The notes beneath the pieces were generated by a model that saw only the letters and a list, made by a program, of their open reading frames with translations, did not search any database and was not told where the DNA came from. The translations under genes and the position numbers were made by a program. Positions 2,931 to 63,474 of a stretch of 64,000 nucleotides of DNA are shown piece by piece. The DNA is from a virus, in the IMG/VR virus record IMGVR_UViG_3300037420_000246, positions 3,642 to 67,641 of that record; one strand, written 5' to 3'. Each line of letters starts with the position of its first letter. Positions within the stretch are counted from its first letter, which is position 1.

Positions 2931-4301
2931 ATGCCAAAGAAATTAACACAAGAAGAATATCTAGCTAACTGCATTAACGCCCACGGCTCGACGTACAATT
3001 TAGAAAGAATTGTGTATCGCGGAACGATGTCGAAAGTTACTGTCGGTTGTCCAATCCATGATTGGTTTGAAGTGAAAGCCGGATCATTTATGAGAGGGAC
3101 TGGTTGCGCCAAGTGTGCTGCAGATAAGCGGGGTCTTAACAGACGACTCTCAGAGGGAGAATTCTTATCGCGGAGTGTCGCGCGGCATGGACAAGACTAC
3201 GGATACCAATTTGTAAACTACGTGAAGACGGATGTTAAGGTCAAGATTCTCTGCAATCGCTGCGAATGCACCTTCGAGATGACGCCAGAGTGTCATATGG
3301 CAGGACAAGGCTGTCGTGATTGTGGATACGAGAAGAATGGCTTGAATAAGCGCAGCAAGTTTGAAGAATTCGTCAAAGCCTCGCGTGAACATCACGGACA
3401 AAAGTTCAATTATGATGGTGTTGATTGGAGAGGAAATAAACAATCTATTGAGTTGTTTTGCCCTGTCCATCAAGAATATTTCACGACTACGCCAGCACTG
3501 CACGCGAAAGGAGCGGACTGCCCTAAATGCGCTAAACAACGAGGTGGTCTGAAGAACCGCAGTAATACCGAGAAGTTTGTCAAAGATGGAACTGAGAAGT
3601 TTGGAACACGATTTGACTACTCTGAAGTGGACTACATCAAAAGCAATCTTAAAGTGAAGATTCGTTGTGTTACGCATAATAAGTGGCTTTCTGTGACTCC
3701 GAATATGCATCTAGCAGGTTTTGGAGGTTGTGCGGATTGCGCTAAAGAAGCCACGAGTGAGCGTTGTAAGAAGTCAACGGAGCGTTTTGTCCTTGACGCC
3801 ACTAAGGAGCACGGTTCTCGGTATGGCTATGATCGTTCCATTTACAACGGTGCGTACAACAAAGTAGAAATTCATTGCAGAGAGCACGGCTATTTCTGGC
3901 AGAGCGCTGGCGCTCACATAGCAGGCCGAGGTTGCTCTAAATGTGGTAACAACGGGTATAAAGTAAACAAATCTGGGTATCTTTATGTTCTATACGATGG
4001 TGAATTAACTAAGGTTGGCATTACAAACAGGAACCCTGAAATCCGTTGCAAGTTTATTGCTAAGAAGTCTGAACGCCCATTCGAAGTTTTGAAGTTTTAC
4101 CACTTCGATGACGGCGGAGTTCCGTTGAGTCTTGAAACAAAACTGCTGAGTGAGTTGTGGCAAACATATAAGTCTCCAACAGAGAAATTTTCAGGATACA
4201 CCGAGTGCTTTTACCATGTTGACCAAGCCGCCCTACTAAACCGAATTGAATCACTAATCAAAGAGCAACATAGCTCTTACTCCGCTTCACCAGAAGCATA
4301 A
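2931..4301 (+). CDS. Homing-endonuclease-like protein: four zinc-ribbon repeats + C-terminal T5orf172/GIY-YIG-like domain
   Basis: Four ~60-aa repeats each ending G-x-G-C-x-[KD]-C-[AG]; C-terminal GYLYVLYDGELTKVGIT motif resembling GIY-YIG/T5orf172; inserted between tail tube and chaperone genes with its own flanking hairpins. Confidence 0.6.
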   Translation: MPKKLTQEEYLANCINAHGSTYNLERIVYRGTMSKVTVGCPIHDWFEVKAGSFMRGTGCAKCAADKRGLNRRLSEGEFLSRSVARHGQDYGYQFVNYVKTDVKVKILCNRCECTFEMTPECHMAGQGCRDCGYEKNGLNKRSKFEEFVKASREHHGQKFNYDGVDWRGNKQSIELFCPVHQEYFTTTPALHAKGADCPKCAKQRGGLKNRSNTEKFVKDGTEKFGTRFDYSEVDYIKSNLKVKIRCVTHNKWLSVTPNMHLAGFGGCADCAKEATSERCKKSTERFVLDATKEHGSRYGYDRSIYNGAYNKVEIHCREHGYFWQSAGAHIAGRGCSKCGNNGYKVNKSGYLYVLYDGELTKVGITNRNPEIRCKFIAKKSERPFEVLKFYHFDDGGVPLSLETKLLSELWQTYKSPTEKFSGYTECFYHVDQAALLNRIESLIKEQHSSYSASPEA

Positions 4302-8200: not shown

Positions 8201-11043
8201 GCTACAAAGTGATGCAGACGGTTTCGCAAGCATACCACTTGGCTGAAATGGCCCAAGCGCTTGCTTCGATTCCTGTAAAACTGGCTGCTGGTGCTGCAAC
8301 AATGTTTGCACAATCTGGCTTTGGTGGCTTTGCCGGTGTGGCTGCAATGACTGCTCTTGTTGCGGGCTTTGGTGTGGCTATCAGTGGGGGTGGCAGCAAA
8401 CCTCCTTCTGCGGCTGACCGTCAAGCTGCGCAAGGCACTGGTAGTATTCTTGGGGATGACAAAGCTAAGAGCGATAGTATTGCCCACTCCATCTCCGTCC
8501 TTGAAAAAAATAGTGGTTTGGGGCTGGCGCAAGGCAACGAAATGGTTGGGTATCTGAAGAATGTTTCGGATAACATTTCAAGTTTTGCTGCCTTGGTTGT
8601 CCGTACAACAGGCATTACAGGCAATCTGGCAGACACCACTAAAGGCGGTGCTGCAAGTTTTGCAAGTTCTGCCCTTGGTACGACACTCATAATGGGGCCA
8701 ATCACTGAGATTCTGAACAAACTCTCTGGTGGTTTTATTGGAAACGCAATTGGTAAAATTGCTAACTCTATCTTTGGTGGCAATGTACATACAATTGACA
8801 CTGGCTTCACGTTAGGTAAAACCTCTGTTGCGGATGTGATGGCAAATGGTGTAAATGCTAGTCAGTACACAGACACAAAAACGGATGGTGGATGGTTCCA
8901 TAGCGATAAGTATAACACCAGCCTAACCTCCCTCGGCCAACAAGCAAACGATCAGTTTGCAAAGATTATTGTCGGGATGTCTGACACCATCACTGCTGCT
9001 GCAAAAACTCTTGGGGTTTGCACTGATGATTTTACAGCACATCTGCAAAGCTTTGTTGTAGACATTGGAAACATCTCGCTTAAAGGGCTTTCTGGAGACG
9101 AGATTCAAAAGCAACTGCAAGCTGTATTCAGTAAGCTTGGTGACGACATGGCGCAATATGGTCTGTCTGGATTCGATAAGTTTCAGAAGGTTGGTGAAGG
9201 GTATCTTGAGACGATTGCTCGTGTTGCTAACGACTTCATGCAAGTGAAGGATGTCTTTGCTGTTCTTGGCAAGTCTCTCACTGCTGTAGGTGTTGATGCA
9301 GCAAATGTATCCGAGGGTTTGATTAGTGCAGCAGGTAGTGTAGAAGCTCTTACGAAGAATACAAAAACCTTCGTTGACGGCTTCCTCACTAACGCTGAGA
9401 AGATTGCCCCAATTGCCAAGTCTGTTGATGCTGAATTGGCGAAATGGAATCTGTCTTGGGTGCAAACTCGTGAGCAATTTAAGCAAGTGGTGCTTGGCCT
9501 TGATCTTACAACCGAAGCAGGGCAAAAGGAATACGCAGCACTGATTAATCTTGCGGGGGCATTCGCCCAAGTGCATGACGCTATTGTAGACACTACAATG
9601 ACGGCCCAACAGATTGCTGACCAACGTAAGAGTTTGCAAGACCAGTATGACCAACTGACGATGACCTCTGCTCAATTACATGAGAAAGAACGTAATGCTA
9701 TAGACGATAGTAACAAGGCGCTCTATGACAATATATATCTTCTTACACAACAAGCACAGGCCATCAAAGATATGCAGGATGGCGCAACTACGAGTCTTGC
9801 TAATGTGGATAATGCTTTCAATGTGTTCCAAAAAGCTGTAGATCGACAGAAAACTGTGCTGAAGAATGCTTTCGACGTTCAGATGAAGCAGATTGACGAC
9901 AAGATTACTCTTGAAACCAATGCTAACCAGAAGCTGAAAGCACTGGCATCTAGCCTTCAATCTACGCTTGATGGTATGAAGCCATCTGTGCAAGCAGCCG
10001 ATGTAACAAGGGCGCTGCGAGTTCAAGCACAGCAGCAGCTTCGAGATGCTTTGACGTTGTTTAAGTCTGGTGTTGTTCCTGATGCAGACAGCCTGAAGAA
10101 TCCTCTGAGTGTTGCTGCAAGCGACTCTACGGCGATGTTCTCAAGTGCTGAGGATTACCAACGTGATTTCTACCGCACTCAGAACACCATCTCTGATTTG
10201 GCGAAATACAGCAACGACGCCGCATCAACAAGCGACAAAATCCTGCAAACTCTTAACGATCAGAAGACTGCTGCACAAGCTGCATATGACGCTGAGATTA
10301 AGAGCTTAGATGACACAGTTGCTAAGGCTCAAGAGCAAATTGACATCCTGAAAGGGCAGTCTACAACGCTGTTGAGCATCGATCAAGCATTGAACGCCCT
10401 CGGCTTGGCTATCAGCGAAGCTAACAAGAATCCTCTTGTCAGTGGACAATCTGCTATCTCTCAAGCTTATCAAACTTCTTTGGGGCGTGCTCCAGATCAA
10501 GCAGGGTTGGACTTCTGGAAGAATCAAATCACAAAAGGGACGCCTATCGAAGACATCCTGAATGCGATTAACAATTCTCCTGAAGCTCAAGTGCAGAAAT
10601 TGTACCAGTCGTTGTTCAATCGTCCTGCTGATGCTGGTGGATTGGGATTCTGGACACAACAGATGAACAATGGCGTGGACATTTCGGCTATCAAGCAAGC
10701 GATGATGTCGAGTGATGAGTATCATGACTTAAAGAACAAGATTCCTTCGTTTGACAAAGGGACGAATGAACTCCCTGAAGACATGCTTGCTATGGTTCAT
10801 AAAGGTGAGCGAATCGTGCCCGCAAGTGATAACTTGGAATTGATGCAACGTCTGAAGAGTCCTCAATCGAATGCTGAAGCCTTGAGCAACGAAGTGGTGA
10901 ATCTGCGTGAAGAGATTGCTTCCCTTAAAGAGACAATCCGTGCGGGGGATGTTGCTAATGTTCAGACATCGAAGGAAATCGTAAAAGTGTTGAAGCGCTG
11001 GGACGTAGATGGTCAGCCTGAAACTCGTGATGTATCAGCGTAA
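5230..11043 (+). CDS. Tail tape measure protein (1937 aa)
   Basis: Very long ORF after G/GT; Ala/Lys/Glu/Gln-rich coiled-coil N-terminal third, hydrophobic Gly-rich segment (AFAASLGVSLGVLVAAVAAVVAVVG), C-terminal tandem ~60-aa repeats. Confidence 0.9.
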   Translation: MALEASSLQVVVSGSGIEATTKQLNDLAAAGEKAEKSTTKLAQSSKDSSKAQVDAAQQAASQYNAIIDMMTEKSNTYYADKAAKAAIAAQQELYDGMVMMDKLRAGAEGYYADQAAKREKDHQDVLAKQQAQKNAAEARYAAEQELANRMNAAFDKRQAQTEAMAINAKLDADTKALKADGDAFTAMLKTQAEKVGLTTKELREYNAEQLRTKAAQLGLMQAGSESKDKIDGYINTIKNAKGPHESFNLLTAGSARELMVLTHELSQGQFQRFGGSLIVLAERINFLPSVLEKAGAFAASLGVSLGVLVAAVAAVVAVVGTAIWTFTKSGTALKEMRNEVILTGHSIGVTGDQLYDMANKIGEATGKFGAAREAVIQLASTGKFTADQIKLITEAAVGLEKYGGVAIDNTIKQFEKLAAEPIKGAQRGFKGVSEAAMELDKQLHFLTPQMLDEIIHLERIGDAAGASKKAIGSLAEEEKKRVQELKNNLTPIGVLFDTIAEKASKMWNNVFHKKSLTEQLEDAKDNLAQIQGVNGVHPEQTHQANAIAEVARLEKKIRDQAEKEKQEQHNKEVARTAELALIHRRTLLDMGKDEDTLTAQTARDAADRAAIKAAGLKSELFSAEADAEAMAIIEKKYKQKVTPTPGLGMSKVNSRIAELQMEFEKASYFADKEMKLEQDKAKHHEVSALKLYNDQQKYFNDRQKLIDDTEAKEIAATNLYDHGAKNKDKLAEEAATKRFEIEKRYDMLRGKLAADRDAADTALERANKTAEDNREEMYVKGTQTINAETKALQDKIAGYNLIPEAIRKAGISEKQMQDYFTQAEIDNIQERIDALKQFDGVDGTMMAAEIARLNARKNALDDKRKAQKAWEDVQAGNAAALNTPAAMKANAAEQVKLWKDAGNEIQKALTQAFGESGKAAGEMFKAFSEGQANQIDLTQKVAEANRRTDLSKIEQTQLITALQNQQEQNQLNMYGNMANAASQFFDHQSKGYKVMQTVSQAYHLAEMAQALASIPVKLAAGAATMFAQSGFGGFAGVAAMTALVAGFGVAISGGGSKPPSAADRQAAQGTGSILGDDKAKSDSIAHSISVLEKNSGLGLAQGNEMVGYLKNVSDNISSFAALVVRTTGITGNLADTTKGGAASFASSALGTTLIMGPITEILNKLSGGFIGNAIGKIANSIFGGNVHTIDTGFTLGKTSVADVMANGVNASQYTDTKTDGGWFHSDKYNTSLTSLGQQANDQFAKIIVGMSDTITAAAKTLGVCTDDFTAHLQSFVVDIGNISLKGLSGDEIQKQLQAVFSKLGDDMAQYGLSGFDKFQKVGEGYLETIARVANDFMQVKDVFAVLGKSLTAVGVDAANVSEGLISAAGSVEALTKNTKTFVDGFLTNAEKIAPIAKSVDAELAKWNLSWVQTREQFKQVVLGLDLTTEAGQKEYAALINLAGAFAQVHDAIVDTTMTAQQIADQRKSLQDQYDQLTMTSAQLHEKERNAIDDSNKALYDNIYLLTQQAQAIKDMQDGATTSLANVDNAFNVFQKAVDRQKTVLKNAFDVQMKQIDDKITLETNANQKLKALASSLQSTLDGMKPSVQAADVTRALRVQAQQQLRDALTLFKSGVVPDADSLKNPLSVAASDSTAMFSSAEDYQRDFYRTQNTISDLAKYSNDAASTSDKILQTLNDQKTAAQAAYDAEIKSLDDTVAKAQEQIDILKGQSTTLLSIDQALNALGLAISEANKNPLVSGQSAISQAYQTSLGRAPDQAGLDFWKNQITKGTPIEDILNAINNSPEAQVQKLYQSLFNRPADAGGLGFWTQQMNNGVDISAIKQAMMSSDEYHDLKNKIPSFDKGTNELPEDMLAMVHKGERIVPASDNLELMQRLKSPQSNAEALSNEVVNLREEIASLKETIRAGDVANVQTSKEIVKVLKRWDVDGQPETRDVSA

Positions 11044-18513: not shown

Positions 18514-20394
18514 TTAGATGATTTCGCAGGCACCACCAGCACACGCACTCTCAGCAGCAAGGTCTACGGCGTTCCCGTTTTCTTCAAACACTTGCCCAAT
18601 GTCGATTCCTTCAAGAAGCGGAAGCAGAGACTCGTAGCGCTCTTTCGTAATATCCTCAAAAGGAAGTTGAGGATATGCTTCGGCCCCTGCAAAAGGCAAC
18701 ACGGAGATGCCATTGTAGTGATCCTTGTTTTCCCACATCCACTTCGTCAGTTCTGCCCATTCATCATTCTTGACAGAGATAGTACAGCTAACGTTGTGTT
18801 GATTAATGCCGGTACGATGCCCTGCTGACACCCAATTTTGAGACACATTCTTCACACGTTCCAGAAGAGAATTCATCGTCTCTGTCCTTACCGTTGCGCC
18901 ATCAGGGGCCTTCTGCGGGAAACTCAGTACAACTTGGTGGGGCACGAACACATCCTGCTCTACAAGAGACGGAGCGGCTTTCATCATATATTGTGCAAGC
19001 GCCTCATCTTTACCTGCGCGCATACGGCGGATGTAGTAGGGAGCATGCCAAGCGTGAATGCCACTCGAAGTGCCCAACACAAGCGACGTAGTACCCGCAG
19101 GTTTCACACACGTTACTCGTGCAGCCTTCTTAATACCAAGCTGTTTAGCCACAGCAGCGTTAGTATCAAGGGCGTGCTTTGCTGCTTCACTCATGTTCAA
19201 CGGTTCTACAGTGCCAGATGCAATACCAGTCATAGACACGCCCAGCAGCGCATCCTTTTCGCAAGCAATCTTCCATTTAGGATTCAAGTAGTGGAAGTCT
19301 GTATATCCTGCTTGAAGCGTGCCGATGAATGCTGCTGCTGATGCTGCTTCGTTGAAGCTTTGTTGGTCAGTGATGGCGCTTGCATTAATTTCCGAAAGAT
19401 TGCACATTTGGTACGGGCGCAAGGCAATTTCACAACATGGGTTCGTTCCCCAATCTTTGTTGTTCGTCCAATACACTCCCGGCTCTCCACAACCACTGTC
19501 TTCTACACGCTTCATCAGTTCAGCAAACTCTTCCTCAGTAACTTCCCCACGAGGCAGCACAGCAGAGTTATTAGAGCGAGCACGATACGGATGCGTCAGA
19601 TACCACTCACCGGATTTTGCAGAAAGCATTTCTTCATCATCACGATCAAACAAGCTAATCATAGCTGCACGGCGAATACCTCCTGCCAACACTGCATCTG
19701 CAATGATACAAGCCATGTCATGCACTTCAATAGGTTTCAGCTTTCGTCCGACAGCAGAACGGAGAAGCACAGTGAGCTTTTCTACACAAACTCGTAGTGG
19801 CTCTGGTCCCGGTGCTTGCCCACCAGTCGTAACCAACTCACTCCCTTTTTCCCGAATGTCCCGATAGTCAAATACAGGCAGAGTGCCCGCGTTGAAGAAT
19901 GCCTTGGCTACCACTTTAATAGCATCGCTCCAACCAATAATACTATCTTGCACTTGAAACTTGTATTCACCATCCGACTCAGGTAGTTTCACTTTAGGCA
20001 GCTTGCCTACATGACGCCTCTGCACAGAGTAGCCCATACCCGTACCGCCCAACAGCAGGAACATAAGCTCGCTGAAGAAGTGGGGAGACTCAGCAGGAGC
20101 ATACGCACAATTGAAGATACGTGCCTCATTCAATAGGATGGGACGACCACCAAATTGCAGCGAGCGCATCGACGGCAGTACACGCTTGGTATCAACAAAA
20201 TTCTTATACACGCCATGAATCTCATCAGCCATCTCTGGATACTTTTCGATGTGCATCGCTTGATTGCGAGCGCTAATCTCGATAAAGTTTTCCCGACGAT
20301 TCAGTTCAGGTACAAATTTTGCATACTTGTTAAAAACAGTAATATCCGACAGTGCTTTTTTATCCATTGATTTCATTTCCTTTTGATTGCTCAT
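18514..20394 (-). CDS. Ribonucleotide reductase catalytic chain (possibly class II/B12-dependent; no beta-subunit gene seen)
   Basis: 626 aa; NPCCEIALRPYQMCNLSEIN active-site region resembling RNR NPCGE/CNL motifs; C-terminal redox Cys pair ACAGGACEII; adjacent glutaredoxin. Confidence 0.8.
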   Translation of the reverse strand: MSNQKEMKSMDKKALSDITVFNKYAKFVPELNRRENFIEISARNQAMHIEKYPEMADEIHGVYKNFVDTKRVLPSMRSLQFGGRPILLNEARIFNCAYAPAESPHFFSELMFLLLGGTGMGYSVQRRHVGKLPKVKLPESDGEYKFQVQDSIIGWSDAIKVVAKAFFNAGTLPVFDYRDIREKGSELVTTGGQAPGPEPLRVCVEKLTVLLRSAVGRKLKPIEVHDMACIIADAVLAGGIRRAAMISLFDRDDEEMLSAKSGEWYLTHPYRARSNNSAVLPRGEVTEEEFAELMKRVEDSGCGEPGVYWTNNKDWGTNPCCEIALRPYQMCNLSEINASAITDQQSFNEAASAAAFIGTLQAGYTDFHYLNPKWKIACEKDALLGVSMTGIASGTVEPLNMSEAAKHALDTNAAVAKQLGIKKAARVTCVKPAGTTSLVLGTSSGIHAWHAPYYIRRMRAGKDEALAQYMMKAAPSLVEQDVFVPHQVVLSFPQKAPDGATVRTETMNSLLERVKNVSQNWVSAGHRTGINQHNVSCTISVKNDEWAELTKWMWENKDHYNGISVLPFAGAEAYPQLPFEDITKERYESLLPLLEGIDIGQVFEENGNAVDLAAESACAGGACEII

Positions 20395-40413: not shown

Positions 40414-41448
40414 TTAACGTTTATTCGTCTCAATCTTGCCAACATCAACACAACCAGTCCCTCCACAAGCAGAGCATTCCTGCACAGGACGATTGATTTC
40501 CTCCATCAACTCTTCCAGATAGTTCTTAATTTGCACTGCCATCTCTTTCAGGTTGTTGGCCTGCCATCCTGCAATCGGCGTGTAGCCCTTGTAATTGTTT
40601 GGTGAATACGTCATCTCAAACAAATCCACTTCCTTGTGCTCTACAGATTGGGTAACAAACTTAGGTCGGCCGCGAGGAGTGTTCTTAACAGTCTTCTGCA
40701 CATTGTAAGGCTTAATAGCAATCTTACGCTTTACAGTGAAACAGAAATCATAGTCTGATGTGATTCGAGCGTATTTCCCATCGATGTGTGTGCGGACATA
40801 ATCACGAACAATCTTATACACCTGCTCTGAGGACAGCGAGCATGGACGCTCATGCAGCAAGAATTCTGGCGTCAGCATCTTCTCGATGTCACTGTAGCGG
40901 ACAATGCTGGACAACTCGTATTCCCCTGTACGACTGCTCCAACCAGAGCTTTCAAGCATGCTCACTTTCATCTCAATAGGGTTTTCCACCTTATCAATCT
41001 GAAGATGCTGAATAACGTTCACGCTAAACTCAATAGGCTCCCACGAGTCAGGAAGGGTTTCTGTAACAGGCTTATACAGAGCACGGTACTCGTTAAAGTG
41101 TTTCCATGCTGTGTCGTCCAGATCATCATTCCAATACTGCTCCACTTGCTCAATCGACAGATTCAGAGGAATTTCCTCGTTTGCCAGAGTAGGAAGCTTG
41201 AGGGTGAAGCCAATAGTTTGCGTGCTGCCTCGCTTCAAATCTTCAATGCTCGTGATTTCATCAACACCTTGCAAGAACACCCACTTTGGAAAGAAAGTTG
41301 GTTGTGCAATATCACTCAAAAGTTTTCCGTTCACCTTCCAACGATCCAAGCTGCCTACGGCACTGGTAAAGCCGGATGTGTAGCCATAGCTGCCACTCTC
41401 AGCAATGTACATGCCAAGATTGGTTTTGTATGCCATTAGGTTCTTCAT
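40414..41448 (-). CDS. Hypothetical protein with C-terminal CxxCGGTGC motif
   Basis: Start at ATG 41448 with SD GGAGG (track start 41469 lies inside upstream gene); about 344 aa. Confidence 0.5.
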   Translation of the reverse strand: MKNLMAYKTNLGMYIAESGSYGYTSGFTSAVGSLDRWKVNGKLLSDIAQPTFFPKWVFLQGVDEITSIEDLKRGSTQTIGFTLKLPTLANEEIPLNLSIEQVEQYWNDDLDDTAWKHFNEYRALYKPVTETLPDSWEPIEFSVNVIQHLQIDKVENPIEMKVSMLESSGWSSRTGEYELSSIVRYSDIEKMLTPEFLLHERPCSLSSEQVYKIVRDYVRTHIDGKYARITSDYDFCFTVKRKIAIKPYNVQKTVKNTPRGRPKFVTQSVEHKEVDLFEMTYSPNNYKGYTPIAGWQANNLKEMAVQIKNYLEELMEEINRPVQECSACGGTGCVDVGKIETNKR

Positions 41449-41726
41449 TTGTCCTCCGCACTCACCCATCGAACGACAGTGATGGTCTCTAGCTTAGGAG
41501 TCACTTTCCGCACCTCTGGTTCGTACCACTCGCTATCACTCCAATATCCGCTGTTCGAACGGGTAAAGTCCACAGCAAAGTGCTCTTCACCAACAGCGTA
41601 AATGTCAGTTTTGTATTGCATCTTGTGTTCGGTTTCCCAATCCCCTGCTTCTACGACAGTGCAACCGTCGCCACCCACTTCTGAGTGTCCAAGTACATAA
41701 AGATGCCTGAATTCTGATACATTCAT
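41445..41726 (-). CDS. Hypothetical protein
   Basis: 93 aa ORF, ATGA coupling. Confidence 0.5.
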   Translation of the reverse strand: MNVSEFRHLYVLGHSEVGGDGCTVVEAGDWETEHKMQYKTDIYAVGEEHFAVDFTRSNSGYWSDSEWYEPEVRKVTPKLETITVVRWVSAEDK

Positions 41727-44731: not shown

Positions 44732-44819
44732 ACAAATCCTTGCGTGGGTTGTTGTAGCAGCCTACGCAGTTTATTTAGTAGTATTGATTTCAAATAACTC
44801 TGGAGGGCTTGCGGCATGA
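44721..44819 (+). CDS. Small membrane peptide (32 aa)
   Basis: Not in track; overlaps both neighbours (ATGAATCTTAA and ATGA); MNLKQILAWVVVAAYAVYLVVLISNNSGGLAA has one TM helix. Confidence 0.35.
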   Translation: MNLKQILAWVVVAAYAVYLVVLISNNSGGLAA

Positions 44820-45259
44820 AGGTTAAAGTGATTAAAGCAGATGTTGACAATTGGTACAAAGTTGGTGAGGTACATGAGGTTGAAAACCGTGTTGTACAAT
44901 ACGATGGTTATAAAATGTACCCGCTCATCGAAGATAGGAATGTTGGCATTGATCCAGACGATTGTCTCGTTGTTGGAGACACCCTACCCGCTGAGACCTT
45001 CCTAGTTGGCGAGAAGTGCAATGAACATCTGGTAACAGAACACTTTGTAACAGAAGCCGACAAACTCGCATTGCGCATGGAAATGGCAACCCGCATGGCT
45101 GCTAACATTCCTGAGAAGACGCTGTGGGATGAATATGCGATGGTAACTCTTCAATCCATCCTCGTTGATCCTAGTGCGTTGATGCGCTCTCCTGATGTGC
45201 TAGCAAATATGGTGACGCGCGTTGTCGATGCCATGATGGAAGCGAGGAAGAACAAATGA
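44816..45259 (+). CDS. Hypothetical protein
   Basis: 147 aa ORF. Confidence 0.55.
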   Translation: MKVKVIKADVDNWYKVGEVHEVENRVVQYDGYKMYPLIEDRNVGIDPDDCLVVGDTLPAETFLVGEKCNEHLVTEHFVTEADKLALRMEMATRMAANIPEKTLWDEYAMVTLQSILVDPSALMRSPDVLANMVTRVVDAMMEARKNK

Positions 45260-45444
45260 AGAAGCACTTCTTCCTTATTCTGGCAGTGCTGCTGCCTGTA
45301 TTTATCTTTCTTGTTGGTGCATTCACTGTCGCTTCGTTCGATATTCGAGAATGGGAACCGTGGGGAAGGCTAATTGTTGGGGCGTACATGCTGATAGCAG
45401 TTATTGTGTGCGGTTTTGCATGGTGGAACACAGGACAAAGTTGA
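45256..45444 (+). CDS. Small two-TM membrane protein
   Basis: 62 aa; FFLILAVLLPVFIFLVGAF and LIVGAYMLIAVIVCGFAWW. Confidence 0.5.
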   Translation: MKKHFFLILAVLLPVFIFLVGAFTVASFDIREWEPWGRLIVGAYMLIAVIVCGFAWWNTGQS

Positions 45445-45497
45445 GATTCGATTTTTATAATTCAATATAAATCCAACTTCGATCCCCTCTTGAAACA

Positions 45498-45527
45498 TTT
45501 CAAACCTGTGTCACCAACGAGGGGGCT
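45498..45527 (+). repeat. Conserved 30-nt motif copy 1 (ATTTCAAACCTGTGTCACCAACGAGGGGGC)
   Basis: 28/30 identical to 53225-53254; opens a ~450-bp non-coding island. Confidence 0.6.
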
Positions 45528-45900
45528 TCTCCTTTTCCTGTATAATTCCCCTCCGCACGGCTTTTCTGCCCTGTGCAAATCCCCACAAAAGCCCTTCCAT
45601 ACTTGGCGCAGCGAGCCTGCTTTCGTTGAAAGCAGGCGAGCGTATCCCTGCCTATTTCCAGCATGAAAAATCGCCTTGAAGCATTGTTTTCCAATAGAAA
45701 CAATTCTTATAGGCAAAGCTTTCCCCTCCCCATCTAAAGGGATGTCTTGTGGTAATAATGACAATAATGTGACATCAGACAAGCGATAGCAGCCACAGCC
45801 GTGAGAGGCTACGGATACAGCATATGTCAGTGGTGGTAGTTCACATTGGGGCAGGAATGCCCTGTTAGAAAACCTTGTGTTACGTCATAGGAGCCTCCAG

Positions 45901-46212
45901 ATGGACAGCAAAGAGAACGTCATTCCCATTACGCGAGCAGGAAAGGAAACGGCTGTGAGCCGTCATTACACACCCTATCATACGGACGCAGAAGTGCCAT
46001 ACTGCTATGGCGTGGATGCCATAACAGGGGAGTGCGGGTGGTTTTGCTTTAAGGAAACCTCGGTCGGCCGCGTGGCGACAACGCCACTTTTCGAAGAGTG
46101 GTTTGAACTACTGTTTTATATGAATCAGGAGGGCTACACGTTCTCGCGTGTAAGGGAGAGGATGTTCGAGAAGAGGCCAGCAGTGCCGCCCCAAGAGGCA
46201 CAAGGAGAATAG
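45901..46212 (+). CDS. Hypothetical protein
   Basis: ATG 45901 with SD AGGAGCC; 103 aa. Confidence 0.5.
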   Translation: MDSKENVIPITRAGKETAVSRHYTPYHTDAEVPYCYGVDAITGECGWFCFKETSVGRVATTPLFEEWFELLFYMNQEGYTFSRVRERMFEKRPAVPPQEAQGE

Positions 46213-46236
46213 ATGTATGGGCAGGTGTCATACCTG

Positions 46237-46308
46237 CTACGACAGAGCTTGTCGCAAAATCTACGACAGGGGTTGTCGCTACAGGTGTGACAGAGCTTGT
46301 CGCAAATA
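46237..46308 (+). repeat. Three tandem 24-bp iterons (nnnnGACAGrGsTTGTCGCnnnnn)
   Basis: CTACGACAGAGCTTGTCGCAAAAT / CTACGACAGGGGTTGTCGCTACAG / GTGTGACAGAGCTTGTCGCAAATA; further GGGTTGTC half-site at 46322. Confidence 0.6.
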
Positions 46309-46684
46309 TGCAACAAAATATGGGTTGTCTGGTCATATCGTTTGCTGTGACATTCGGTTACTTTGTGTAGACACGATAACCCATTCATAAGAATCTTACA
46401 AGCACATTCTAGAGGGAGTTACACATGTGAGATTGTTGCATTGCCACATTCCATACAGTTGTCTTGTTGACCATAGGTAACTTCCCATAGCATGATGTAC
46501 AGCAAACGGCAATAGATTTTAGAGCGCACGGTTAAAATTTTTCTTGTGTTGCTGGGAATGTTGTTTTATAGTGTCACTCATGGACAGCAAGCAGAGACAA
46601 GGTGGAATGTCAAGATTGCCCTAGCTGCCCTGCTAGGTGGCTGTACAACAAACTAACTGAATACAAACTTAAGGAGAATTGAAC

Positions 46685-52992: not shown

Positions 52993-53166
52993 ATGGAATA
53001 CCACCAAATCAAAGAAGGAATGCAAGTACTCGACAAACTCCCTCAGTTTGGATATGGTGAAGTTGTTAAGGTGAACAAGACAACTGTGTGGGTGAAGTTT
53101 TATAACTACCGTGACAAGCTAATCATTTACGACTTGGACCATATTCAGTTTTTGGAGAGGGTGTAA
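52993..53166 (+). CDS. Hypothetical small protein (57 aa)
   Basis: ATG 52993 with SD GAGGAAG; track ORF 52960 begins inside upstream gene. Confidence 0.4.
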   Translation: MEYHQIKEGMQVLDKLPQFGYGEVVKVNKTTVWVKFYNYRDKLIIYDLDHIQFLERV

Positions 53167-53224
53167 AGTTCATTTCCAAACTGTATAAAATTCTAGGAAA
53201 TGAATCTGGATTCCTTTGCCGATA

Positions 53225-53254
53225 ATTTCAAACCTATGTGACCAACGAGGGGGC
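53225..53254 (+). repeat. Conserved 30-nt motif copy 2 (ATTTCAAACCTATGTGACCAACGAGGGGGC)
   Basis: 28/30 identical to 45498-45527; opens a second ~440-bp non-coding island. Confidence 0.6.
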
Positions 53255-53535
53255 ATGTGAATCCCCTGAAGCTGTCAGAGACAAGGCTTTTCTAGGGACA
53301 TGCAGCATTTGTAGAGGGGCTGGCGAGAGCAGCCCTTTTGTTTGCCTGTAAAGCTGCGGATAGAATGCATGTTTGCTCTGGCTAGGGCTTATCGGCAGGC
53401 TTTACAGGGATTGTCTGTAGCTCCGATGTGTCTAGTATGAGGCAGGAGGGAGGCTTACGAACGGCAGGAACACTAATAAAAACAACGAGATAAGTGTTAT
53501 ATACAACTATTTTCTAACTTTCTTGCTACTTTCTC

Positions 53536-53564
53536 TTGACTCTGCCTGTTAGCTGGCCTAAGAT
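53536..53564 (+). promoter_or_regulatory. Promoter TTCTCTTGACTC-N17-TAAGAT
   Basis: TTGACT 53536-53541, 17-nt spacer, TAAGAT 53559-53564; 40 nt upstream of gene 53604. Confidence 0.45.
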
Positions 53565-53603
53565 GGACACATCAAACATACATTCTTACGGAGGGATGCA
53601 AGC

Positions 53604-53936
53604 ATGACACACAAGGAATTTCAAGCAATCTTGCAGCGTGCTATTTCATCCGGTGCCATCCACCATGCGGCGCAATTGATGAACACTGGTAATTTTAAAA
53701 AGCTTGAGGGCATCACCGTCGGAAACATGGGTGACATCACATATGCGAATCCGGACAAGCTGAACATTCGCGCACATGCTAGCAAGAAAGCTCGCATCAC
53801 TCACAAATTTGTATTGTTCTACACCTACCAAGGGCAACACAAAGTAATCTCGGCTGGCAGTCTTGAAAGCATTGCCGGATATGTCGAATATAGAGAGCGT
53901 ATCTATGCATTCGAAACAGAAACCTTTGGGGTCTAA
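53604..53936 (+). CDS. Hypothetical protein
   Basis: 110 aa; SD GGAGGG. Confidence 0.55.
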   Translation: MTHKEFQAILQRAISSGAIHHAAQLMNTGNFKKLEGITVGNMGDITYANPDKLNIRAHASKKARITHKFVLFYTYQGQHKVISAGSLESIAGYVEYRERIYAFETETFGV

Positions 53937-62798: not shown

Positions 62799-63115
62799 GA
62801 ATGCACATCAAATACCCGCTTTAAGCGGGGTTTCTATTATCTATGATTATCGTTGCACTCTTGCACCACAAAAATTAGTCTTACTCGCTGGCGCTCGCGC
62901 TTAAAGCATTGCACACAAACCAATCTTATCTATTCGTTGCACTGCGCGAGCCGTAGGCGAGAGGAGGGCAACACAGAGCGAAGCGATGGTTATCTGTTCC
63001 TCTGTGGAGGCGAAGCCGTAGCAGAGATAAGGTAAGAATGATTGTCTTAAGGATTGAACGTCCTTAAGTTATCTTTTCTCTTATCTATTCTCTTATCTGT
63101 TAGTACGGTAAAAAA

Positions 63116-63184
63116 GCGGGGTTTTGCACCTCTCTAATGCGGGGTTATCAACCTCTCTAAAGCGGGGTTTTGCACTCCTACGAC
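63116..63184 (+). repeat. Tandem 23-bp direct repeats GCGGGGTT(T/A)T(G/C)CA(C)CTCTCTAA(T/A)
   Basis: GCGGGG at 63116, 63139, 63162 (period 23) plus palindromic copies at 62817-62836 and 63197-63216. Confidence 0.55.
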
Positions 63185-63229
63185 ATATCCTAATACCCGC
63201 TTTAAGCGGGGTTTATGCATTCTGTAAGC

Positions 63230-63258
63230 TTGACAAATAGCATTGTTCATGTTACAAT
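63230..63258 (+). promoter_or_regulatory. Consensus sigma70 promoter TTGACA-N17-TACAAT
   Basis: TTGACA 63230-63235, 17-nt spacer, TACAAT 63253-63258; 30 nt upstream of ATG 63289. Confidence 0.6.
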
Positions 63259-63288
63259 GTTTCTGTAGTAAATCAATCAAGGAAAATT

Positions 63289-63474
63289 ATGCAACTTAAT
63301 CTTAACCCGGAAGTTGCCATCTGGATAGATGCGAACAGAGGCGAACTGTCTAGGCAAAAGTTTATTCTAACTCTTGTCAAGAAAATGATGTTGCAGGATA
63401 CTCAATCTACTAAGGATAACAATGGAAAAAACAATCTCCCCAATGGAGCTATCCACGCTCCTGTGCAAGAGTAA
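63289..63474 (+). CDS. Small DNA-binding regulator, ribbon-helix-helix-like
   Basis: 61 aa; N-terminal beta strand QLNLNPEV then two helices (AIWIDANRGELSRQKFILTLVKKMM); first gene after consensus promoter. Confidence 0.45.
   Translation: MQLNLNPEVAIWIDANRGELSRQKFILTLVKKMMLQDTQSTKDNNGKNNLPNGAIHAPVQE

Follow-up and report, generated by a model that had tools for sequence, protein, structure and literature searches.

A conserved two-copy non-coding module at gene boundaries of an uncultured freshwater phage, with a possible role in transcription termination

Gene order and the two largest gaps

The 64-kb window, by which we mean the whole stretch of DNA analysed, is a fragment of a tailed-phage genome that encodes a tape-measure protein, a family-B DNA polymerase, a primase-helicase and a ribonucleotide reductase. 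Its polymerase shares 55-63% identity with the counterparts in an uncultured Caudoviricetes record, Limnohabitans phage DC31 and Curvibacter phage P26059A, and the source is an uncultured freshwater siphovirus-like phage. Leftward genes occupy 18.5-43.6 kb of the window, and from about 44 kb there follows a block of many small rightward genes, with sigma-70-like promoters and terminators interspersed. A 62-aa gene on the + strand (45256-45444) ends with its stop at 45444, and the next credible gene, of 103 aa and on the same strand, has an AGGAG Shine-Dalgarno sequence at 45889-45893 and its ATG at 45901 (feature 45889-45903). The initial annotation of this DNA had found no credible ORF in 45445-45900, and rightly so: a gap of about 455 bp, hereafter island 1, lies between the stop of the 62-aa gene and ATG 45901. 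It is also as striking as was claimed, for island 1 and its twin, island 2 (53167-53603, upstream of a 110-aa gene at 53604-53936), are the two largest of the window's 11 gaps that measure 150 nt or more. What does not hold is that all ORFs within it are antisense, as two TTG-started sense ORFs are also present (45490-45666, 58 aa; 45676-45789, 37 aa).

A further gap of 288 nt (46391-46684) is found upstream of a 228-aa gene. This gap and island 1 are fused into a single non-coding region of 700-900 nt in relatives without the 103-aa gene, which therefore appears to have been inserted into, or lost from, one long control region. Among GenBank phages there is no DNA match, near or distant, to 44800-46400, nor any homologue of the 228-aa protein. 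Relatives were instead gathered by exact-protein look-ups and profile searches, and they form three tiers of metagenomic contigs: identical copies (L002-L005), mosaic close relatives (L006-L012) and progressively more distant ones (L013-L032), in which flanking proteins are about 40-60% identical.

A conserved module, two copies per genome

The gap had been described as opening with a 30-nt motif at 45498-45527 that recurs at 53225. The motif, ATTTCAAACCTGTGTCACCAACGAGGGGGC, is indeed there on the + strand, one base off at 45497-45526, and its recurrence stands, with a second copy at 53225-53254 of 28/30 identity (two mismatches); 100 shuffles gave no such match. Its family-wide core, TGnGRTCAAYGAGGGG, is at 45507-45524 in island 1 and occurs in about 20 islands of related contigs, on the + strand in all of them. 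The motif is in turn the core of a module of about 108 nt, whose two copies in the window lie at 45441-45548 and 53169-53276, both on the + strand. R1, a sequence-only covariance model built from 18 modules, gives them 74.9 bits (E 1e-21) and 62 bits (E 1e-17), respectively, both being members of its training set; two copies outside that set, in L024 and L025, reach E 2.5e-11 and 1.4e-9.

Alignment A11 of the 18 module copies, from about 12 phages, is ungapped save for one 1-nt indel. Three boxes about 33-34 nt apart are seen in it: box 0, ATTT[GG/CC]AA, at the upstream stop codon; an AAnTTCGAT box about 34 nt past it (AACTTCGAT at 45477-45485 in the window); and, about 33 nt further, the motif, which is followed by a pyrimidine-rich TTTCC tail. 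Where enough sequence is present (about 12 related metagenomic contigs), each genome has two copies, always on the strand of the flanking genes, and the R1 search places the two copies of one genome 3.6-9.5 kb apart. The module starts 0-25 nt past the upstream stop codon or directly after a terminator. R1 found no module in two more distant relatives. An 18-mer scan of the genome_contigs collection gave 119 stretches, and the 80 of these that were listed and scored fit R1 only locally (10-20 bits, seed region); as the matches to bacterial genomes are limited to the seed, they are attributed to chance, and there is no host or prophage copy among the 80. Exact and degenerate motif scans of viral and metagenome contig collections, and a protein-profile scan of the metagenome collection, returned no match; the metagenome collection evidently does not contain the source samples. 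Multi-copy binding sites were also considered, and this idea is unsupported, since the core heptamer is no richer in the islands than in the rest of the genome.

A second conserved block, TTATAGGCAAAGCTTTCCCCTCCCC, with a small hairpin lies at 45707-45742 on the + strand and recurs in L016, L022-L025, L021, L027, L029 and L031. By eye, the arms of its hairpin vary yet stay complementary (CCCTC/GAGGG, CCGT/ACGG, GCCC/GGGC). Gaps of the island-2 type have another short box, GCTTATCG, and at times TTATCGTGATAA near-palindromes, about 130-150 nt past the motif; such boxes are found at 53380-53400 of the window, at about 3425-3445 in L026, 6995-7030 in L021 and 15560-15610 in L027.

Absence of a conserved reading frame

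Is the island a real or recently decayed protein-coding gene? Gene callers do predict one on the antisense strand: a TTG-started ORF of 106 aa at 45462-45782 is called as a gene by JGI (L002 7024-7344, L003 8207-8527). The + strand is C-rich, as it is where the minus strand codes, and stops are few in the minus frame that crosses the module (13 vs 38 and 44). Against this, the ORF has a TTG start without a Shine-Dalgarno sequence, and its length in close relatives is 106, 82, 79, 58, 44 or 0 aa. None of the four candidate ORFs of island 1, counted on both strands, is conserved, and indels of 1 nt and 16 nt fall within every one of them among close relatives. Across the 18 module copies, each of the three sense frames is interrupted by stops, and the minus frame across the motif is open for 12 to 140 codons, depending on the copy, and lacks a start codon in 7/18. 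Conservation across module copies shows no 3-nt periodicity, and six-frame comparisons give short matches in many frames on both strands, which is a signature of nucleotide-level conservation. No Pfam or PHROG match in any neighbouring product hints at a split gene. The decayed gene that the initial annotation had held out as the finding that would speak against its proposal does not appear, then: the region is non-coding in every relative examined, with no conserved frame. On these grounds a small ORF, sense or antisense, was rejected. A coding gene here is largely refuted and scarcely credible, and the JGI-called ORF, with a length of 0-106 aa among near-identical relatives, is on sequence comparison almost certainly spurious.

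Mosaic junctions within the island

Close relatives are about 100% identical in the 3' half of the island, and in the flanking genes as well; this identity equals the 98-100% background of these genomes and was rejected as a sign of function. The 5' 250 nt, by contrast with that background, form a divergent patch within an otherwise 98-100% identical genome. Mosaic junctions are located inside the island: the window and L011 are 96-100% identical over 45700-46600 and 0-88% just outside. Close relatives further differ by a 16-nt indel between 45736 and 45737 and by a 1-nt indel, and different or additional genes are found upstream of the island. Both islands of L011 open with the same 20 nt, AAAGTTGAGATAGGAATTTT (10472-10491 and 19080-19099), across the upstream stop codon, which suggests that both copies of the module in a single genome have undergone gene conversion or recombination with each other.

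It is thus conceivable that the module is mainly a patch of homology for recombination with no regulatory function of its own, like the PeSLs of T4-type phages, which are composite terminator/early-promoter cassettes that shuffle gene modules (PMC2839356, PMC4122927). The breakpoints, the divergent 5' patch, the shared 20 nt of L011 and the changing upstream genes all speak for it. The islands resemble PeSLs in that an intergenic terminator and early promoter lie among small variable genes and coincide with mosaic junctions, and the order in island 2 is module, terminator, promoter, with terminator and sigma-70 promoter about 190 nt apart; island 1 has neither in canonical form. PeSLs, however, are small and occur in many copies, while here there are only two copies per genome in islands of 440-900 nt (455 nt for island 1), and the conserved ~108-nt module has no counterpart in PeSLs. 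Moreover, phages share the module even where their flanking proteins are no more than about 40-45% identical, and this needs selection beyond recombination. A pure homology patch is therefore quite improbable, although the module also marks recombination sites of these phage genomes.

RNA structure in and around the module

The gap had been proposed to hold a structured RNA or a regulatory element. The latter is supported by the clade-wide ~108-nt module as a non-coding regulatory element; a structured RNA is not, as neither an Rfam match nor covariation was found. The covariance search against Rfam 15 gave 0 matches at the gathering threshold in the 64-kb window; region 45300-46000 gave four matches only, of E 2-9 and thus at chance level, and six related loci gave none with E<=1. 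Folding together with homologues fared no better, since RNAalifold on close relatives showed no compensatory pair.

The stems that had been pointed out do exist in the window, but they are not conserved features. GAGGGG/CCCCTC stems can be drawn there between 45519-45524 and partners at 45484-45489 and 45550-45555; runs of G and C are present as described. RNAalifold gives a bulged 10-bp helix, CCCCTCTTGA / (C)CAA-C-GAGGGG (45484-45524, + strand), in the window and its close relatives only. Its duplex energy is -14.6 kcal/mol vs -8.1 +/- 2.2 in shuffles, and two stem positions change from C-G to U-G or from U-A to U-G in the alignment of close relatives, changes that are tolerated in the + strand RNA only. 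Across the family, the CCCCTCTTGA helix is paired in 55.2% of cells vs 55.0 +/- 1.6% in shuffles. The longest in-register helix in the 18 modules is 4 bp, as it is after column shuffling, and only in three lineages, with differing registers, is there significant pairing between the motif and what lies upstream of it. A universal hairpin containing the motif was rejected on this evidence, and by the alignment what is conserved in the module is its linear sequence and fixed spacing, not a set of helices.

The hairpin of 10 bp, GCCTGCTTTC-GTT-GAAAGCAGGC, that had been noticed further downstream is real as well; it lies at 45615-45637 on the + strand, is GC-rich, has no U-tract and folds with a dG of -21.3 kcal/mol with its flanks, which makes it a candidate pause or processing hairpin. 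Its loop (45625-45627) reads TTTC-GTT-GAAA in the window vs TTTC-AAC-GAAC in L006, L008 and L011 (A3 columns 181-188), an inversion that a flip inside a DNA palindrome would produce, and in close relatives the loop shows TCAACGA, the core heptamer of the motif.

What remains for an island that acts as a structured non-coding RNA or a riboswitch-like leader? Single-sequence folding is somewhat better than in shuffles (z -3.2 for 45465-45660, z -2.8 for the whole island 1), and transcriptional riboswitches likewise consist of a conserved segment with a terminator behind it. Yet island 2 over its module folds no better than shuffles (z -0.28), and Rfam and covariation are silent, as said above. 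The aligned island of the L021-L025 clade, about 780 nt long, has a weak consensus fold of -22.5 kcal/mol with an unfavourable covariation term. We regard this reading as very improbable and as refuted, if weakly.

Segments downstream of the module: terminators and promoters

The sequence that comes next is the most informative feature of the islands. Copies of the module are of two types by their surroundings, the island-1-type copies being those upstream of the 103-aa/228-aa gene region. Just after the motif of island 1, a C-rich, G-poor and weakly structured rut-like tract runs over 45526-45603 on the + strand. Its C/G ratio of 3.88 is the highest of 19,900 windows of 78 nt on the + strand of the 44-64 kb rightward block, and the tract after the island-1 motif has a C-G excess of +22 per 100 nt vs a background of -4 +/- 8. 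The overlapping 85 nt at 45527-45611 have an MFE of -13.1 kcal/mol vs -17.6 +/- 4.9, that is, they are less structured than average. The hairpin at 45615-45637 starts 12 nt past the tract. The region thus presents the two parts looked for in a Rho-dependent terminator, an unstructured tract of about 78 nt with C>G on the transcribed strand and a pause hairpin within 150 nt. It resembles the RhoTermPredict model (PMC6407284) in its 78-nt window with C/G 3.88, its low structure and its GC-rich hairpin within 150 nt, and differs from it in that the 11-13-nt spacing of C residues is weak (a chain of 4) and the hairpin loop has 3 nt vs the 4-8 expected; these rut-plus-pause-site criteria are permissive, with 23,930 predictions in E. 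coli (PMC6407284). The C-richness of the + strand also resembles that of an antisense coding region in this genome, so that the rut reading is one of composition only. The same skew is kept among relatives: in 11/12 listed island-1-type copies, which span about 10 independent lineages, the sequence past the motif has a C-G of +10 to +29 per 100 nt. Such strand-specific composition, retained while the sequence diverges, argues for a constraint at the RNA level.

No intrinsic terminator was found inside island 1 by the stem-loop/U-tract criterion of the scanner, the hairpin at 45615-45637 being followed by GAGCGTATCCC, which is not a U-tract; the only match of the scanner around island 1, at 45282-45296, falls in the upstream gene. 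Island-2-type copies are of another kind. Those with a complete core have G>C in 5/5 cases, and several have intrinsic terminators 40-100 nt past the motif, clearly so in L011 and L027 (15482-15508). The one of island 2 (53317-53343, + strand), GGGCTG-GCGAGAG-CAGCCC followed by TTTTGTTT, was read directly and folded. It is to be noted that the simple scanner reported no terminator in 53000-53700 despite this textbook stem and its TTTTGTTT tail; automatic scans therefore under-report terminators in the window.

Past its terminator, island 2 carries at its 3' end a strong sigma-70-type promoter with a short leader for the 110-aa gene, TTGACT-17-TAAGAT (53536-53564, + strand). Homologous islands end likewise with TTGACA-17-TAAGAT, as in L026, L021 and the L022-L025 clade. 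In island 1, no consensus sigma-70 promoter was found in 45550-45900, and transcripts of the 103-aa gene must consequently come through the island. From the motif to the next promoter there are about 260 to 620 nt, depending on the copy. The motif itself was also considered as a promoter, with GAGGGG as a -35-like element and an A/T-rich box 17 nt later. This was rejected, since conservation of the -10-like box is poor, transcription of island-2-type copies would start within the terminator, and no sigma factor or RNA polymerase was recognised among the window ORFs.

A boundary between early transcription units?

How can these parts be put together? Every copy of the module, as read from its surroundings, is immediately upstream of a terminator-like segment, Rho-like in island 1 and intrinsic in island 2. 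An element that is conserved with fixed spacing, shares the orientation of its genes and in every case precedes a terminator is most readily explained as a cassette for boundary or termination control between early transcription units that would act on the rightward transcript, and this is what we tentatively favour for island 1. Rightward read-through from the upstream genes would be stopped or throttled at island 1, and the module would be recognised by a factor, from the host or the phage, that determines the amount of transcription entering the 103-aa and 228-aa genes. The sequence comparisons show that the region is non-coding, that the module is conserved in two copies on the gene strand, and that the composition and terminators are as described; that the region is transcribed, that Rho acts on it and that a factor binds is what we infer.

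The logic would be that of lambda nutR-tR1, an N-utilisation site embedded in a Rho-dependent terminator. The likeness extends to two similar sites per genome on early transcripts (predicted as such here), to a short conserved element just upstream of terminators for which, as for nut/boxA-NusB-NusE, recognition as linear RNA is proposed, and to island 1, where a rut-like tract rich in C and poor in G comes after the element within a long gap between cistrons. There are differences, too. Sequences like boxA (GCUCUUUAACAA / CGCUCUUA, up to 3 mismatches) gave no match in 45445-45900 or 53167-53345, and the 94 matches overall compare with 78.5 expected by chance. The boxB hairpin is not conserved: a hairpin of its type, CCCCT[TGGGATCAACG]AGGGG, is found in L022, L023, L025 and L026 and is flipped in L029, while the window, L024 and others do not have it. 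No N-like protein is recognisable, with no Pfam match to an N-type antiterminator among the 100 window ORFs; N proteins are short and unconserved in sequence. Nor was any other antiterminator, sigma factor or RNA polymerase recognised among these ORFs. Unlike the lambda nut sites, both module copies have the same orientation in one gene block, and one copy in L027 is without a co-oriented downstream gene.

The putL and putR RNAs of HK022 act in cis for antitermination that is independent of protein (PMC9378689). They are similar in that they, too, are cis elements of about 70-110 nt that occur twice, where delayed-early regions begin and upstream of terminators, whereas they are defined by two conserved stem-loops (about 70 nt) and the present module has no conserved helix. 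The lack of a boxA-like sequence in either island and of a conserved boxB- or put-type hairpin thus counts against the termination-control cassette. It may be that the cis-regulatory RNA in question is nut/put-like or Rho-antagonising without similarity to boxA, boxB or put. Whether the module is a new clade-specific family of cis-regulatory RNA, recognised linearly and controlling Rho-dependent and intrinsic termination, or else the 5' domain of a new family of phage small RNAs, is a possibility that we put forward with doubt. The element as a whole is a clade-specific form of the known intergenic terminator/promoter control cassettes, with the 108-nt module at its head unexplained.

Two relatives do not fit easily with a signal that serves only the next gene. 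A strong terminator precedes one module in L021, so that the module there needs its own promoter or acts as DNA, and in L027 the second module and its terminator are followed by a convergent gene, so that read-through would have no gene to reach. In these two cases the module behaves like a self-contained unit, as would be the case if the module were the 5' part of an independent small-RNA gene that ends at the downstream terminator. A weak promoter would then lie in the A/T-rich box 0, box 1 and the motif would form a seed or protein-binding segment, and the transcript would be about 110-150 nt long in island 2 and longer, or Rho-terminated, in island 1. Island-2-type copies do have the conserved single-stranded 5' segment, variable body and intrinsic terminator of terminator-ended small RNAs (window 53317-53343; L027 15482-15508), and weak promoter-like sites are present at the 5' ends of the window modules, AGGACA-18-TATAAT at 45432-45461 and TGTAAA-18-TAAAAT at 53162. 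These hexamers, however, are conserved neither in score nor in register across the 18 modules, which leaves a conserved sigma-70 promoter in box 0 unsupported, and island 1 lacks an intrinsic terminator. An independent small RNA is accordingly unlikely, yet a live rival of the cassette.

The other way out of the L021 case is that the module works at the DNA level, as a nucleoprotein site made of an array of protein-binding boxes (an operator, an enhancer of the downstream early promoters or a replication origin). An almost gap-free alignment over about 110 nt with three evenly spaced boxes and no covarying helix would suit such a site. Box 0 can be written as ATTTGGAA or ATTTCCAA, a near-palindrome readable in either orientation, and a second core, inverted or direct, is present in some copies (CTCGTTGAT in L027 and L021). 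The distal island of relatives has invariant palindromes and a LexA-type box, CTGT-N8-ACAG, upstream of a TTGACA promoter; in the L021-L025 islands these palindromes are, judging from sequence, DNA operator-like sites. What a DNA site leaves unexplained is the strand-specific composition, C>G or G>C, and the terminators after every copy. The varying distance from motif to promoter, the lack of enrichment of the core heptamer and the absence of iterons from island 1 do not favour it, either, and we give this reading a small chance, as the other live rival.

The LexA/SOS-box-like CTGT-N8-ACAG and GTGAAnnTTCAC palindromes are seen upstream of the TTGACA-17-TAAGAT promoter in L021-L025 and L027. 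The LexA-like sites lie about 100 nt upstream of the promoter of a 227-aa gene (A7 columns 663-678; L027 9789-9804). CTGT-N8-ACAG is absent from the whole window.

Little is known of the timing of gene expression in the abundant, uncultured phages of fresh water; the closest of their relatives in culture have Limnohabitans and Curvibacter as hosts. A conserved module that is present twice and always precedes a terminator would give a handle on this timing, and could reveal a mechanism of antitermination or Rho control unrelated in sequence to the lambda and HK022 paradigms.

Other features of the window

Elsewhere in the window, the gap at 63036-63421 contains three head-to-tail 23-nt repeats (AAAGCGGGGTTTTGCACCTCTCT and variants) at 63113-63181; a near-consensus promoter with an extended TG, TTGACA-17-TACAAT (63230-63258), follows about 50 nt later. 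By their arrangement, the repeats look like an iteron or operator array. The 351-aa product of 40414-41469 on the minus strand matches Pfam Gad1, the Gabija anti-defence protein (E 9e-63), and the window further encodes a protein with a CapR homology domain (E 3e-39) and an HTH_36 protein. A 456-aa HNH/endonuclease-like gene on the + strand (2931-4301; PHROG 681, E 5e-78) lies among the genes for virion structure, and its product may be a homing endonuclease.
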